Position numbers and translations under genes: made by a program
Origin: Candidatus Sulfomarinibacter kjeldsenii
Lineage (GTDB): Bacteria > Acidobacteriota > Thermoanaerobaculia > Thermoanaerobaculales > Sulfomarinibacteraceae
Reading direction: 5' to 3'
Length of the DNA: 64,000 nucleotides
Assembly: GCA_014764485.1 (NCBI GenBank)
Contig: JACXWA010000109.1
Coordinates: forward strand, 12,769-76,768
The notes under the pieces: model-generated
What the model saw: only the letters and a program-made list of their open reading frames with translations
What the model was told of the DNA's origin: nothing
Database searches by the model: none
Shown: positions 2,029-61,160 of the stretch, one piece after another
Position numbering within the stretch: the first letter of the stretch is position 1
Layout of the letters: every line of letters starts with the position of its first letter

Positions 2029-3309
2029 CTACACCCCCCCGCCTGCGCGGCGGATCATTTCGTCCACCGTAGCAGCGACACGCGCCGCGTGGCGGACCCG
2101 TTCCAATTTTTTCTCGGCGGCAAGATTCGCCTTGTGCTCAGCTGGAGGCACTCCGTGGCGCGCGGCCTCCGTTGCAACATAAGCGTCAACCTCTGCCTCG
2201 GGGACCGGGGTTTCCCAGGTCTCAGCAAGCTGTTCGAGAATGAGGGTATCGAGAACTTCCTGGCGCGCCGCTGGTTCCGCTTTCGCGGAAATCTCGTGCC
2301 AGTCGACCTTCTCGGGATCGAATTCCACACCCTGCATGGCCATGGTGTAAGCATAGCGGTCAAGCTGCTCTTTGAGCGTCGACTGCACGAGTGACGAGGG
2401 AAGTTCGGCCTGGTCGATTTCCGCCTCGAGGTGATCGAGAATGAACCGTCGCCAGCTGTTGCGTCGCTCACCGCGCTTCTGCTGCTCTAGGACGTCATGG
2501 ACCCTTTGCCGAAGCTCCTCGAGGTTCTCGAGGCCGATCGTGGTTGCAAGGTCATCGTCGATCTCTGGCAAGACCTTGCGCTTGAGCCCCTGCACCGAGA
2601 TGGTGTAAGTGACGGTCTTTCCGGCCTTGACGTTGTCCTCGAGATCTTCAGGAAGCACCTTCGTGGCGACGCGCTCGTCACCGATTTTTGCGCCCTGAAG
2701 AGCCTCGTTGATTTCGGGTGGCACCGAGTCTGATCCGATAATGAGGCTCGCCCCATCCTCGGTATACGGTTCCTCGTTGCTATCCTCAACGTCTCCGCGC
2801 AGATCAACTTCGGCCAGCATCCCATCACCGGCCTGGTCGCCCTCGGCCGGCTCCCACACCGCCTGTTCCTCCTGGACTTTTGCCAATTCCTCGTCGATTT
2901 CAGCCTCACTGATCTCCAAGGAGATCTCGGGCAGGTTGAGCTCTCCGAGTTCTGGCAGGTCGTACCGAGGACGCACTTCGAGCTCTGCGGTGAATGAAAA
3001 AGCTCCATCCTCCGCAAATGAGAGATCTCGAATCTGCGGATTCGTGATCGGCTCGATCTCGCTTTCGCCATCGAAGACCTCTCCCCACAGGAGGCCGGTG
3101 AGGTGTTCTTGGAGTTCGTCTCGGATTTCATCGGCAAAGCGGGCACGAACCGCCGCCGCCGGCGCCTTGCCAGGGCGAAATCCGGGCACGCTCGCCTTGC
3201 TTCGGAATTTGCGGACAATCCCATCGCGTTCGCGGTCAACTTCAGTAGATTCGAGTTGGGCCGAAATCTCGATGGTGTGATTCGCTCGGTGGGTCAGTGT
3301 GTACGGCAT
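2029..3309 (-). CDS. tig: Trigger factor
   Basis: The 452-aa track ORF was trimmed to ATG 3309 (MPYTLTH...) because its first 26 codons overlap tRNA-Leu. Contains the ribosome-binding motif GFRPGKAP. tig-clpP-clpX synteny. Confidence 0.9.
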
Positions 3310-3344: not shown

Positions 3345-3430
3345 TGGTGCGAAAGGGGGGACTCGAACCCCCATGGGGGACCCCCACGAGATCCTAAGTC
3401 TCGCGCGTCTACCAATTCCGCCACTTTCGC
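3345..3430 (-). tRNA. tRNA-Leu (anticodon TAG), CCA encoded
   Basis: Hand-folded cloverleaf from the reverse complement GCGAAAGTGGCGGAATTGGTAGAC...GGTTCGAGTCCCCCCTTTCGCACCA. Anticodon loop CTTAGGA, long variable arm. Confidence 0.9.
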
Positions 3431-3441
3431 ATTCGGGAAAA

Positions 3442-3517
3442 TGGTGAGCCGTGGAGGAATCGAACCTCCAACCTAGTGATTAAGAGTCACTTGCTCTGCC
3501 AATTGAGCTAACGGCCC
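3442..3517 (-). tRNA. tRNA-Lys (anticodon CTT), CCA encoded
   Basis: Reverse complement GGGCCGTTAGCTCAATTGGCAGAGCAAGTGACTCTTAATCACT...GGTTCGATTCCTCCACGGCTCACCA. Anticodon loop CTCTTAA. Confidence 0.9.
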
Positions 3518-3530
3518 ACGGCCAACGGGC

Positions 3531-3559
3531 ACTATACGGAAAAATGCCCTGATGAGCAA
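3531..3559 (-). promoter_or_regulatory. Putative sigma70-type promoter for the tRNA-Lys/tRNA-Leu pair
   Basis: On the minus strand: TTGCTC, 17 nt spacer, TATAGT. The -10 ends 13 nt upstream of the tRNA-Lys 5' end. Confidence 0.4.
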
Positions 3560-3598: not shown

Positions 3599-3704
3599 CG
3601 AATGAGGAGTTAGGAATTAGGAATTAGGAATGCCGCCCACCCTCCCGGTCGCATCAAGAACAAGGGGGGCGGGTTGGAAATTCCTCATTCCTCATTCCGA
3701 ATTC
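3599..3704. repeat. Long imperfect hairpin with heptamer-repeat arms (element A)
   Basis: Left arm GGAATTAGGAATTAGGAAT (3613-3631) pairs with ATTCCTCATTCCTCATTCC (3680-3698) at 17 of 19 positions. An inner CCGCCC/GGGCGG stem is present. The element abuts the stop codon of the 3705-4412 ORF. Confidence 0.6.
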
Positions 3705-4412
3705 TTATTTGTGGACGAGGTGTTTCATCTCGGAGCTCCCGAGATCGGACTCGGCGGTAATGACGACTGCCGAGGTGCCGTCCGCAAACGCCGGCATATC
3801 GGCTTCGGCCGAGAAGGTGCCATCCTCGCCCGTTTCACCCTCGGCGAGAACCAGACGCCGCGGCTCCCCGGTCGACTTGAAGAGCACCGAAACCTTGACT
3901 CCGGCCTGTGGGGTTTGGGCGATCGAATCGACCGCCAAAACACTGATCGGTGCGAGGCCGCCATACGCGAAATCGTGTTCGATCGAAGCGCGAAGAACCA
4001 GGTGGGCCTGGTCTCGCTGCGACTCGAGGTAATCAAGAATCACCTGATCCAAAGATGGTTCCTCGCTCGTGACCGGTTCTGCCTCACGATGCGTGATGGT
4101 CGTGTCGTCGTCGGCCGCAATTTCGATTTTGCCCGTGAGGCGGGCGAGGCCACCGGAATGAACGGCGTCGACTATCGATCGGTGCTGCCGCTCCATCAAG
4201 GTAGCGATCGTCTCCCGGTCGACATCCTGTTCTACCAGGTCATCGTAAGGCGTCCGGCGAGAGTAGAGGATCTCGCCACTCGTGTAGACAAGAGACTCAA
4301 CCATCGGGTTGCCTCGTCCCTTGTCCTCGGTCTGCACGTGATATGTGGTGCCCGAGTGATCGATGTCCGTGTTGAAACCAGTCAGAACCACAGGTGACAT
4401 TCCCCTCCTCAT
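3705..4412 (-). CDS. Hypothetical protein (no domain recognised)
   Basis: 235-aa ORF with window-typical codon bias. N-terminal block FNTDIDHSGTTYHVQTEDKG. The start may instead be the second ATG at 4400 (MSPVV), which follows AGGAGG. Confidence 0.6.
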   Translation of the reverse strand: MRRGMSPVVLTGFNTDIDHSGTTYHVQTEDKGRGNPMVESLVYTSGEILYSRRTPYDDLVEQDVDRETIATLMERQHRSIVDAVHSGGLARLTGKIEIAADDDTTITHREAEPVTSEEPSLDQVILDYLESQRDQAHLVLRASIEHDFAYGGLAPISVLAVDSIAQTPQAGVKVSVLFKSTGEPRRLVLAEGETGEDGTFSAEADMPAFADGTSAVVITAESDLGSSEMKHLVHK

Positions 4413-5511: not shown

Positions 5512-6551
5512 CGGATGAAACCATCCTCGAGATTCTGAGCCGACACTTGGACGGCGATCTCAATGCAGATGAGGAAGTCGCGCTTTCGGCCAGGCTCGAC
5601 GCTGAGCCCGCCCTGGCAAATGAGCTCGAAACCATGCGTCGCATCCGCCGCTCTGTAGCAGCCCTCGCGTCGAGCGAGCAGCTTCCACCCGAACTCGATT
5701 CTTTGGTCGATCCGCTGCTGCGCGGAAAACCGGAACCGATAGCTCTTCGTTCGTGGGCGCGGTGGCTGGCGACGGCAGCCGCTGTCGTCCTCGGTGCGAC
5801 AGTCATTATCGAAGTCAATCGCCGCAATCCCGGACCGAGCATCGAGTCCATGGCAAAACTGAGGAAGCAGGGTCATCCGGCAGAACCAACCGAGCGATTC
5901 ACCCTGGCGCCGCTACCTACGAGCTCTTTACCCGTGGAGCAGCAACCCCTCGGCGCCAGCGACCGGCTCCTGGCGAGCCCCGCTCCGGATATCGAACTCG
6001 ACGACCCCGTTGCGCTGGAGGTTCTCGGACCGCTCGAGGAGGGAGAGGTCCAAACAGTCGACGATCAGAAGATCTCGGGGGGTCCGGTCGACGAGATCCA
6101 GCCTATGGGCTCGGCCGCAGCGGAGGACAAGGGTGCGAAGAAGGGCGAGAGCCTTCGCACCACAGTCCCCGGTGAGAAGGATGACCTCGACCATGCACCG
6201 CAGCGCAAAGAATCAGACGGCGCGCTGGAGGATGGCCGCGGCGCGGCCCTACAATCGTGGGCGGCCTCACCTCCGATGGGGCAGGCTCAGCTCTTCGTCT
6301 TCGTCAACGGGAAATCTGCGTGGCGCGATTTCACTCCACCCGCCACGTGCAAAGCCGGCCGATACTCAGTCCGCATCGTTGTGGCTGGCGGTGCTGTTCG
6401 AGAGGCGAGGCCGGTTGGGGGAGCGGCATCGGCCGCCCCCTCGCAACGACTCTGCGCCGCAGGACTCATCCTCGATCTCGAGATAGACGAGGTTGCAGAC
6501 GGCGAATACCCTGCAGAGATTGTGGTGAAACCGCGCGGTTCTGGACAGTGA
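5508..6551 (+). CDS. Putative anti-sigma factor (single-pass membrane protein)
   Basis: Start overlaps the sigma factor stop (ATGA). N-terminal anti-sigma-like helix bundle (LSRHLDGDLNADEE...), one TM helix (WLATAAAVVLGATVIIEV) and an unassigned C-terminal domain. Confidence 0.6.
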   Translation: MTDETILEILSRHLDGDLNADEEVALSARLDAEPALANELETMRRIRRSVAALASSEQLPPELDSLVDPLLRGKPEPIALRSWARWLATAAAVVLGATVIIEVNRRNPGPSIESMAKLRKQGHPAEPTERFTLAPLPTSSLPVEQQPLGASDRLLASPAPDIELDDPVALEVLGPLEEGEVQTVDDQKISGGPVDEIQPMGSAAAEDKGAKKGESLRTTVPGEKDDLDHAPQRKESDGALEDGRGAALQSWAASPPMGQAQLFVFVNGKSAWRDFTPPATCKAGRYSVRIVVAGGAVREARPVGGAASAAPSQRLCAAGLILDLEIDEVADGEYPAEIVVKPRGSGQ

Positions 6552-8476: not shown

Positions 8477-8607
8477 CGTTGTCCTCCCCACACCGACAAT
8501 AGGTGATAATAAGGCGTAAGTCAATCCGGTGGGCACATCTCACTAGATTTCACAAAGAGACTGCAAAATGGCGCGCCAAACGGCGCGCCAACATTGAGCA
8601 GTGGAGT

Positions 8608-53607: not shown

Positions 53608-53760
53608 CGGAATCGGATCCCGATGCCCCGCCCGCCGCGGTCTGCGACCGCGGAACGTGCCCGCGCTCCGGAGAGGCGCGCTTTTGCACCTGCGCAGCAA
53701 CGGCTCGCCAACCCGAGGCTGCGGGAGGGTGGGTGGGTATTCCGAATTCCGAATTCGCCC
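53607..53760. repeat. Structured intergenic element B (heptamer-repeat arm plus GGGAGGGTGGG core)
   Basis: Right arm TATTCCG AATTCCG AATTCGC (53738-53758) next to GGGAGGGTGGG (53723-53733), which is the reverse complement of the CCCACCCTCCC core of element A. The left arm GCGGAATCGGATCCCGATG is degenerate. Confidence 0.4.
53662..53685 (+). terminator. Putative intrinsic terminator of uvrA
   Basis: CGCGCTC-CGGA-GAGGCGCG stem (7 bp, one bulge) followed by CTTTT. Preceded by a perfect 8-bp hairpin, CCGCGGTC-TGC-GACCGCGG, at 53635-53653. Confidence 0.5.
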
Positions 53761-53769
53761 TCGCTCGCT

Positions 53770-55039: not shown

Positions 55040-55071
55040 GAGGCCGGGCTGATGCCCGGCCTCAGTTTTTT
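55040..55071 (+). terminator. Rho-independent terminator downstream of hup
   Basis: Perfect 10-bp stem GAGGCCGGGC-TGAT-GCCCGGCCTC followed by AGTTTTTT. Confidence 0.8.
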
Positions 55072-60763: not shown

Positions 60764-60786
60764 GGGCGCTTCCAAGGAAGGTAATC

Positions 60787-60856
60787 AGTGATCAGTAAAC
60801 AGTAATCAGTAGGGGCCCCGCGCTGGCAAGGAACTGATCACTGCTTACTGATAACT
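60787..60856. repeat. Long hairpin with heptamer-repeat arms (element C)
   Basis: Positions 60787-60810 pair with 60833-60856 at 21 of 24 positions. Arms are built from GTAATCA/GTGATCA/GTAAACA heptads. The 22-nt loop contains GGGGCCCC. Starts 24 nt after the lptD stop. Confidence 0.6.
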
Positions 60857-60925
60857 TGCTTCAGCCTCGGGAAACGGTAAACGCTTGAAGCTCGTTTGGG
60901 AAGGCCACTGAGTTCGGGTACGCGG

Positions 60926-61013
60926 TGGCGGAGGGAGTGGGATTCGAACCCACGGAGGCGTGAACCTCACCGGTTTTCAAGACCGGCGCCTTCGACCACT
61001 CGGCCATCCCTCC
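60926..61013 (-). tRNA. tRNA-Ser (anticodon TGA), CCA encoded
   Basis: Reverse complement GGAGGGATGGCCGAGTGGTCGAAGGCGCCGGTCTTGAAAACCGG...GGTTCGAATCCCACTCCCTCCGCCA. Long variable arm. Confidence 0.9.
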
Positions 61014-61025
61014 GCGATCGCCTAC

Positions 61026-61054
61026 TTTACAGCCATCGGGCTGCCACGTACAAT
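61026..61054 (+). promoter_or_regulatory. Putative sigma70 promoter of tRNA-Ser(GCT)
   Basis: TTTACA (61026-61031), 17 nt spacer, TACAAT (61049-61054). The -10 ends 14 nt before the tRNA 5' end. Confidence 0.5.
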
Positions 61055-61068
61055 ACCTCTCCCGGTGC

Positions 61069-61160
<92 letters not shown>

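Follow-up and report, generated by a model that had tools for sequence, protein, structure and literature searches.

The subject of this analysis is element A, a 105-nt hairpin at positions 3600-3704 of a 64,000-nt stretch of Candidatus Sulfomarinibacter kjeldsenii DNA (contig JACXWA010000109.1, positions 12,769 to 76,768; the whole stretch is called the window below). Tandem arrays of 7-nt units form its arms and flank a GC-rich inner stem. Element A is probably a copy of a non-coding repeat that forms a lineage-specific, multi-copy family in the Thermoanaerobaculia/Sulfomarinibacteraceae; the modules of this family would be selfish or near-neutral DNA copied between intergenic sites, with the hairpin as a by-product. 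This family of small intergenic repeats in marine sulfate-reducing Acidobacteriota is previously undescribed. It is modular and multi-copy, with a set polarity of array and core, quantized array lengths, turnover of content at its sites and a preference for positions following stop codons.

Direct reading of the sequence resolves element A into five parts, all given on the + strand.

3600-3631, + strand: left arm, 4.6 heptads (GAATGAG GAGTTAG GAATTAG GAATTAG GAATG); the array of the well-conserved half-module.
3633-3646, + strand: C-tract core CCGCCCACCCTCCC, with the signature CCCACCCTCCC at 3636-3646; 5' strand of the GC-rich inner stem.
3647-3663, + strand: variable loop or interior GGTCGCATCAAGAACAA, 17 nt, without homology to the interiors of other copies.
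3664-3677, + strand: G-tract core GGGGGGCGGGTTGG, the degenerate C-tract core of the facing half-module when read on the opposite strand.
3678-3704, + strand: right arm, AAATTCC TCATTCC TCATTCC GAATTC, which reads (GGAATGA)n on the minus strand and ends at the stop of the neighboring open reading frame (ORF).

Tandem Repeats Finder (TRF) reported period-7 arrays at 3600-3631 and 3679-3704. Four period-7 arrays scoring at least 36 are present in the window, against none in 40 dinucleotide-preserving shuffles of it. The arms had already been described in an earlier, sequence-only reading of the window, and that description was borne out: 17 of the 19 positions in 3613-3631 are complementary to 3680-3698, each heptad having one T-C mismatch, and the element starts at a stop codon, lies upstream of a tRNA promoter and carries no U-tract on either strand. 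The inner stem had been said to enclose the core. Actually, the core is one strand of that stem, CCGCCCACCCTCCC (3633-3646) pairing imperfectly with GGGGGGCGGGTTGG (3664-3677). Folding, a check proposed at the same time, gave an RNA structure of -55.8 kcal/mol for the + strand (z -5.3) and of -42.9 kcal/mol for the minus strand (z -3.3), far better than shuffled sequences on both strands (0 of 200 as good in each case). In each heptad the mismatch opposes T to C on one strand and G to A on the other, and neither strand can form a wobble pair there. The G-tract GGGAGGGTGGGCGG contains three G3 runs plus GG, short of a four-run G-quadruplex (G4) motif, and when G4s were allowed the minimum-free-energy structure contained none, the hairpin being preferred. 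The proposed comparison with Rfam turned up no family: the window gave no match at gathering score, and element A gave none even at E<=10. Near-identical contigs show the source to be Ca. Sulfomarinibacter, and the window has the sequence variant of JACXWC, the Ca. S. kjeldsenii metagenome-assembled genome AM3-C from Svalbard sediments. The strains of this species that were compared carry element A with identical array lengths, and small indels separate close strains in the G-tract core.

The family was delimited by scanning species-representative genomes (596 Gb) with the pattern GGAATNNGGAATN{2,8}CCCACCCTCCC, i.e. the motif GGAATNNGGAAT-N2-8-CCCACCCTCCC, a search that the sequence-only reading had proposed and that was extended here by one heptad. 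It returned 57 exact matches at 55 loci, when about 2 would be expected by chance (uniform-base estimate, 596 Gb x 2 strands x 7 gap lengths / 4^21). Almost all of them fall in metagenome-assembled genomes (MAGs) labelled Thermoanaerobaculia, Thermoanaerobaculales or Sulfomarinibacteraceae; one MAG has 16 loci, another 7 and several more 3-5. Flanks and interiors are unrelated from copy to copy, indicating that these are distinct loci. The earlier suggestion of a dispersed structured family is thus upheld by the 57 matches and by three elements in the window, but its assignment to repetitive extragenic palindromic (REP) elements and bacterial interspersed mosaic elements (BIMEs), or to miniature transposable elements with inverted repeats (MITEs), failed on the REP tag and on the MITE tests given below. 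The viral contigs scanned yielded 0 matches to the motif, and the genome paper of Ca. Sulfomarinibacter leaves such repeats unmentioned. A cyanobacterial origin, assayed through enrichment of HIP1 (GCGATCGC), was rejected, with 6 sites observed and 5.2 expected.

Several carriers have non-acidobacterial labels, namely L026, L027, L040, L048 and L064 (DATIVB01 'Chondromyces sp.'), L036 ('Alphaproteobacteria') and L046 ('delta proteobacterium'). These labels are probably wrong, since L040 and L046 show synteny with Thermoanaerobaculia loci (66-75% nucleotide identity) and L036 has a protein family in common with such loci.

The anatomy of the family was established on 440 kb, comprising the 55 loci and the window, with copies aligned by eye. 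The common unit is a half-module of about 47 nt, in which an A/T-rich heptamer array is followed by a C-tract core (NCCNCCCACCCTCCC). Among arrays with 2.8 copies or more, period 7 is by far the most frequent, with 195 cases compared with 33 for period 6 and 32 for period 8. The recurrent units, few and related, are GGAATTC (51), GGAATTA (39), CGGATTT (23) and GGAATGA (15); behind these comes a tail of further heptamers and 8-mers, AACGTTNN for example. The array lies only 5' of the C-tract core in 100 cases and only 3' of it in 14. Array length is also restricted: 57 of 121 arrays contain 5 units (about 33 nt), 29 contain 4 units, and only 6 contain at least 6. Family homology stops sharply at ...CCCTCCC, the junction between core and loop.

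Half-modules paired core to core around a short interior form simple hairpins like element A (L013, L031, L038, L040, L049, L060, L064, L065 and others), and other copies have a long interior holding further repeats. Chimeric copies are common, with (CGAAATC)n, (AAAATTC)n, (GGATGCT)n or an 8-mer array on the far side, and in many of them the long hairpin cannot form. The cores vary as well. The commonest variant, GCCGCCCACCCTCCC, has three tracts, and the variants CCCACCCACCCTCCC and CCCGCCCACCCTCCC have four C3 tracts with 1-nt loops, which makes their complements classical G4 motifs. Four-tract motifs with 1-2 nt loops occur 42 times in the 440 kb, and 27 of these adjoin arrays.

Other repeats were noticed in the same loci. 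One further abundant type of array, (AACGTTNN)n, repeats every 8 nt, its unit being built on the palindrome AACGTT, and is often found beside GGGTGGG-type cores (L013:6341-6370, L015:5887-5962, L021:1453-1487, L044:5706-5748, L057:7323-7357, L061:1646-1683). Many array units contain 6-bp palindromes (GAATTC, AACGTT, TTCGAA). The interiors of long elements hold another repeat class, GTCATCCCGAGCG...CGCTCGGGATGAC and GTCATTCCGAGCGAGGCC...GCCGAGTCGA (L011:740-960, L030:1440-1660, L042, L058, L037:2200-2980), whose position suggests nested insertions into the center of heptad palindromes. At L027 (190-520, and 7480-7600 in reverse), complete GGAAT/core elements with their own short interiors are chained head to tail within about 350 nt, as a BIME-like cluster. 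Finally, the 7.3-kb contig L017 carries three copies of (GAATTCC)n followed by GCCGGCGGCCGCACCGGCGGCCGCCGGCC, about 2.87 kb apart (352-398, 3242-3274, 6098-6144); each lies 3' of a Ser/Thr-kinase-like gene, reflecting either a tandem duplication of the gene with its repeat or an assembly artefact.

Turnover was followed at the site of element A itself, where the order on the minus strand is a 235-aa ORF, element A, a 40-nt spacer, a promoter, tRNA-Lys, tRNA-Leu and tig-clpP-clpX.

3705-4412, minus strand: 235-aa ORF, without a Pfam match and conserved across Acidobacteriota; its TAA stop (3705-3707) abuts element A.
3531-3559, minus strand: conserved sigma-70-type promoter of tRNA-Lys/tRNA-Leu(-tig-clpP-clpX), TTGCTC-17-TATAGT; element A sits 40 nt upstream of its -35.
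3442-3517, minus strand: tRNA-Lys(CTT), downstream of the promoter.
3345-3430, minus strand: tRNA-Leu(TAG), downstream of the promoter.

Orthologous sites were collected by a metagenome scan with the 235-aa protein, and most of them retain the tRNA-Lys promoter downstream. Their contents, ordered by protein identity to the window ORF, are as follows.

83-91% (L066, L067, L069, L072, L073): hairpins with (ACGGCTAT)n / (ATAGCCGN)n arms beside a GGGTGGG-type core.
87-89% (L068, L070): (ATCGCT)n / (AGCGAT)n hairpins.
73-74% (L076, L077): (ATTTCGA)n + (CCAAGCC)n, or (GAATTNA)n + (CTCTTCAC)n.
65-66% (L079, L081): (GGAATTC)n then a C-rich tract (CCATCCACCCTCTCCC in L079).
61-62% (L085-L089): other heptamers.
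56-74% (L075, L078, L080, L084, L090, L091, L092; 7 relatives): empty, with the promoter within about 60 nt of the stop codon.
About 40% (other Acidobacteriota): (TTCTGAG)n, (GGGGTTN)n or (TTGGCAG)n hairpins, non-periodic hairpins, or empty.

These mixed contents indicate that the site is persistently occupied, that what occupies it is replaced quickly, and that the element is dispensable. Comparable differences were seen between other syntenic loci. Where L031 has arrays with a 47-nt core-loop-core at the center, L025 has a heptamer palindrome lacking a core, and where L044 has two full elements around about 590 nt, L025 has one short palindrome; in the pairs L018/L038 and L030/L037, one half-module is common and the other side differs. 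The arms showed no covariation of their variable dinucleotides: agreement was 0.667 within and 0.653 between elements, and 745 of 2000 permutations equalled or exceeded the observed value (n=16). Their complementarity stems from a common pool of units and not from compensatory evolution.

Some further observations concern this site. At L089:4800-4937 the array reaches about 12 perfect (ATCTCGC) copies, far beyond the usual five units. The 235-aa ORF has 533 confirmed relatives and is found on hundreds of metagenome contigs, at identities from 91% to about 30%; in the Thermoanaerobaculia-like set, tRNA-Lys/tRNA-Leu/tig usually come after it. Its product looks like a conserved acidobacterial protein without assigned function. 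Exact-protein look-ups of this ORF and of the 258-aa neighbor of element B returned no record, probably owing to differing start-codon calls. A role of the A/T-rich arm as an UP element was ruled out, the arm lying at about -75 to -107 from the inferred tRNA transcription start.

Gene context was examined with a refined home-made gene caller for 145 array/core clusters, counting spacers of at least 40 nt. Of these clusters, 68 are in tandem, 28 in convergent and 13 in divergent spacers, 14 overlap gene calls and 22 lie at locus edges; the spacers available are 135 tandem, 33 convergent and 47 divergent. Convergent spacers are thus over-represented (28 clusters for 33 spacers) and divergent ones under-represented (13 for 47), the latter still holding about 12% of the classifiable clusters. 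When a side faces the 3' end of a gene it lies within 15 nt of the stop codon in 49% of cases, and when it faces a 5' end it lies within 15 nt of the start in only 7%. The tabulation called for by the sequence-only reading therefore supports closeness to stop codons, but not a preferred orientation, since 54 half-modules face a 3' end and 50 a 5' end. Closeness to the stop is partly forced: 7 is not a multiple of 3, so GGAATTA and GGAATGA arrays contain a stop codon in all forward frames. Conversely, at L022, the sole case checked by eye, an ORF start was over-extended through a stop-free (GGAATTC)n array; a first, crude gene caller had placed 33 clusters 'in coding', where the refined caller left 14. 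All-against-all blastp of the called proteins revealed no recurrent transposase-like neighbor in the 440 kb around the copies, Ser/Thr kinases being the only recurring gene family.

Two other elements of the window had been credited with the architecture of element A. Element B does share the GGAAT heptads and the core, and element C the architecture, but the left arm of B is degenerate, and C is built on another heptamer and lacks the C-tract core.

53608-53769: element B, between the convergent uvrA and short-chain dehydrogenase genes.
53608-53625: degenerate left array of element B (sequence, TRF).
53626-53636: C-core CCCCGCCCGCC of element B, followed by an interior put at about 85 or 100 nt.
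53723-53737: four-tract G-core GGGAGGGTGGGTGGG of element B, followed by the array (ATTCCGA)2.6 at 53739-53756.
60778-60862: element C, with the stop of a + strand gene on one side and the 3' end of a minus-strand tRNA-Ser on the other.
60781-60811 and 60833-60861: arrays of element C, (GTAATCA)4.4 and ACTGATC ACTGCTT ACTGATA (TRF, sequence).

The fold of element B is only weakly distinctive (z -1.8). Its core GGGAGGGTGGGTGGG is a four-run G4 motif, and it joins the minimum-free-energy structure as a G4 if this is allowed (-93.7 vs -81.1 kcal/mol). In a near-identical strain (L147:11900-11960 compared) one GGGT unit of this motif is lost, leaving three tracts, and another strain has a single-nucleotide difference; the unit loss is slippage inside the core. 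Element C uses GTAATCA/ACTGATN units of the CAGT type and folds with z -2.0; CAGTNNN hairpins akin to it were found in distant Acidobacteriota loci, and are similar to the TAACTGA/STRR-type units of cyanobacteria and Beggiatoaceae (PMC4679880). Beyond element C, positions 60926-61160 hold two divergent tRNA-Ser genes (TGA and GCT anticodons) 55 nt apart, and the + strand gene has a good promoter match, TTTACA-17-TACAAT, at 61026-61054.

Altogether, we read the family as a fast-evolving, dispensable REP/STRR-like repeat (STRR, short tandemly repeated repetitive sequence) that is tolerated just 3' of stop codons. The half-modules are probably selfish or near-neutral DNA that is copied between intergenic sites without target duplication, through array-mediated ectopic template switching, gene conversion or some trans-acting enzyme. 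Template switching or gene conversion is the simplest idea, and would explain both the chimeras and the fact that occupied sites stay occupied. Arrays would be homogenized by replication slippage in 7-nt steps, and modules would persist where they are tolerated, chiefly right after stop codons. Two half-modules arriving face to face would produce a hairpin as a by-product of their inverted arrangement. At most, this hairpin could provide the upstream transcript with a stable 3' stem-loop, acting as a barrier or insulator before the tRNA promoter, where it is dispensable.

Several points weigh against this reading. No copying mechanism or enzyme was identified, and no clean insertion/empty-site pair with precise ends was found among close strains. 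The census loci were selected for carrying the motif, and their gene calls come from a home-made caller. The preference for 3' ends and convergent spacers would be equally expected from a terminator or RNA stabilizer. Lastly, the exact conservation of the 11-nt core across species, together with the quantized arrays, could reflect a selected function such as a binding site or a structure.

Other mechanisms give the core a larger part. It is doubtful, but conceivable, that the C/G-tract core is the active part, a structure-forming roadblock or initiation site that seeds arrays on one defined side and lets them grow by 7 nt at a time to about 5 units, either by polymerase stalling and stuttering or through a dedicated enzyme (for instance a template-reiterating polymerase, or an HUH nuclease specific for hairpins or G4s). 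Different units could then grow beside the same core, and palindromes could assemble and be replaced at the same sites. If true, core seeding would offer a mechanistic handle on the dominance of heptamers among bacterial tandem repeats, a question open since the STRR description of 1990 and the 2007 survey of simple-sequence repeats (SSRs). One stalling model, with synthesis halted ahead of the core by a G4 or hairpin in the template, was rejected: it predicts that homology ends at the array/core junction, but the end is seen at the core/loop junction, so that this model does not account for the array-core polarity.

Among the functional explanations, it is possible, though unlikely, that element A is a dedicated bidirectional terminator, insulator or mRNA 3'-end stabilizer, with A/U-rich heptad arms replacing A- and U-tracts, blocking read-through into the tRNA promoter and protecting the 3' end from exonucleases. 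In E. coli, REP elements stabilize the mRNA upstream of them, and translation is affected by those that lie no more than about 15 nt from a stop codon. The stability of the hairpin on both strands, its start at a stop codon, the 49% of 3'-facing sides of the family close to a stop, the bias for convergent and against divergent spacers, and the location of elements B and C between convergent transcription units all agree with such a role. However, although the stem and position of element A fit an intrinsic terminator, the U-tract is missing, and a consensus terminator scan listed a site at 55040-55063 but not element A. That site is a textbook terminator on the + strand between convergent genes (GAGGCCGGGC-TGAT-GCCCGGCCTC then AGTTTTTT); another, on the minus strand at 8566-8591 (GGCGCGCC-GTTT-GGCGCGCC then ATTTTG), directly follows tRNA-Pro. 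The organism thus uses canonical hairpin-plus-U terminators. These show no overall enrichment (18 vs 15.3 expected; 20 vs 16.6), and Rho is encoded in the genome. A terminator also fits poorly with the 7 relatives in which the promoter comes almost directly after the stop, with the often unrelated arrays found at the site elsewhere, with the many chimeric members unable to form a long hairpin, with the 13 clusters in divergent spacers (about 12%) and with the unbiased orientation (54 vs 50). Moreover, the mismatches of element A are non-wobble on both strands, and the arms of the family do not covary.

A protein-binding array is improbable. Here the GGAAT heptads and/or the C/G-tract core would be recognition sites, and the binder might be a nucleoid-associated or single-stranded DNA/RNA-binding protein, e.g. 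IHF/HU or gyrase, which have been proposed for BIMEs and for the paired repeats of Geobacter, or a CsrA-like GGA binder acting on RNA. This would account for a core exactly conserved across species, arrays quantized at about 5 units or 33 nt, a set array-core polarity and a GGA motif each 7 nt, and the paired tandem repeats of Geobacter were interpreted as global-regulator sites (PMC2700814). Yet beside the same cores, in the same genomes, one structural position is taken by many heptamer and octamer units unrelated to one another, which argues against a single sequence-specific binder; the element is dispensable at orthologous sites, a 7-bp spacing would be too tight for most double-stranded DNA binders, and no candidate protein was identified. 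Still less probable is a G4/i-motif element, whose G-tract core would regulate replication, transcription or translation, the arrays being secondary. The 42 four-tract motifs, 27 of them beside arrays, the predicted G4 in element B and the in vitro G4 formation of Xanthomonas and Nostoc heptamer repeats (PMC4692102) speak for it. Against it, element A has only three G3 tracts plus GG and no predicted G4, the commonest core GCCGCCCACCCTCCC is also three-tract, and tract number is polymorphic between near-identical strains. Purely local slippage, in which the flanks of ordinary hairpins would have expanded independently at each locus without any relation between copies, is effectively refuted. 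Heptamer SSRs are generally over-represented in large GC-rich bacterial genomes (Mrazek et al. 2007, as reported in PMC4692102 and PMC4679880), and in distant Acidobacteriota loci, too, tandem repeats have a modal period of 7. Nevertheless, one lineage has 57 occurrences of a 21-base motif that covers array and core, when about 2 are expected, the same few unit families recur, and array lengths are quantized, not geometrically distributed.

In many large bacterial genomes, no long simple repeats are commoner than tandem heptamers, whose origin and function are not understood. The family described here is not a new kind of system; it offers a clean comparison for studying why bacteria make heptamer arrays and how, and it constrains models through its conserved C-tract core with strict polarity, its arrays of about five units and the replacement of array types at one orthologous site among close relatives. 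Its modules occupy a sizeable share of Sulfomarinibacteraceae intergenic space. Many motif matches lie within a few hundred bases of short-contig ends, which suggests that the modules may break short-read assemblies, and stop-free arrays such as (GGAATTC)n make ORF callers over-extend gene starts. Without evidence, the modules should be annotated neither as terminators nor as regulatory RNAs.

Among known repeats, REP/BIME elements and REP doublet-forming hairpins (REPINs) (Bertels & Rainey 2011, PMC3116915; Di Nocera 2013, PMC3733652) are likewise short, non-coding extragenic palindromes of high copy number that form inverted hairpin doublets at gene 3' ends. Palindrome doublets are indeed present here, with 57 copies and facing half-modules that fold, but the arms are tandem arrays instead of a unique 20-40 bp palindrome, and interiors are unrelated between copies. 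REP elements have a conserved GTAG or CGTC at one palindrome end (PMC3733652); this tag is absent from our modules, which end in GAAT...ATTC and, at the inner end, in ...CCCTCCC. No gene of the REP-associated tyrosine transposase (RAYT) type, which REPs typically flank, was seen in the 440 kb flanking the copies. The modules are not MITEs either: no direct repeats indicative of target-site duplication flank element A or other copies, the outer boundaries are variable-length arrays with homology ending at the inner core edge, and only array and core are common to the copies, not their whole length.

Comparable heptamer repeats without assigned function are known from Xanthomonas and Nostoc (PMC4692102), Beggiatoaceae (PMC4679880) and Geobacter (PMC2700814). 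The TAACTGA direct repeats of Beggiatoaceae, Cyanobacteria and Bacteroidetes (MacGregor 2015, PMC4679880) are also intergenic heptamer arrays, of 2-6 units and with a patchy phylogenetic distribution, and the right arm of element C (ACTGATC ACTGCTT ACTGATA) is close to (TAACTGA)n. However, those repeats lie mostly just upstream of start codons, are direct and not inverted, and have no associated core.

The family works most like the heptamers of Xanthomonas and Nostoc, the cyanobacterial STRRs and the paired sites of Geobacter metallireducens. It has the features of heptameric SSRs and STRRs, namely an excess of period 7, a mainly intergenic location (14 of 145 clusters overlap genes), a 3'-end bias and a mode of 5 units. 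The paired sites of G. metallireducens, classes 1-3 with units GTTGCTYN, TCTCCGTS and MTYCTGA (Aklujkar 2009, PMC2700814), resemble it in their opposite-strand pairing at variable distance, their 3-5 tandem repeats of 7-9 nt per site, their tens of copies specific to one species of the genus and the hairpins drawn by the authors. The units differ, no C-tract core is described there, and the IHF/HU or global-regulator reading of the authors came without a test. The cyanobacterial STRRs are heptanucleotide repeats (Mazel 1990, as cited in PMC4692102). They share with our family the intergenic tandem heptamers, and the unit of element C resembles STRR units of the ACTGATA/TAACTGA type. Small dispersed repeats (SDRs) are reportedly embedded in cyanobacterial heptamer repeats, in work attributed to Elhai in 2008 and cited by PMC5861425; such a short conserved element in or beside arrays is reminiscent of the 47-nt core-loop-core that distinguishes L031 from L025. 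The cyanobacterial sequences are different, the acidobacterial core consists of C3/G3 tracts, and there is no HIP1 enrichment.

Finally, the heptameric SSRs of Xanthomonas, (GGGAATC)n, and Nostoc, (GGGGAYT)n (Rehm et al. 2015, PMC4692102), belong to a wider excess of heptamer SSRs for which 7-nt slippage was proposed (Mrazek et al. 2007, as summarized in PMC4692102 and PMC4679880). Like our family, they consist of tandem 7-nt units in many intergenic copies per genome, are enriched right after stop codons and depleted between divergent genes, prefer a given number of units (4 there, 5 here), vary in length and sequence between close relatives at the same sites, and have G4 potential and inverted pairs capable of forming stem-loops. 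By contrast, the acidobacterial heptads are A/T-rich and not G4-forming, the G/C tracts reside in a separate, conserved and non-repeated core of fixed polarity, several unit families occur with the same core, and the host is acidobacterial. What is new with respect to described repeats is thus a composite in which A/T-rich heptad arrays adjoin a separate, conserved core of C3 tracts with fixed polarity, along with the five-unit arrays, the replacement of 7-mers, 8-mers and 6-mers at a single site, and the host lineage.

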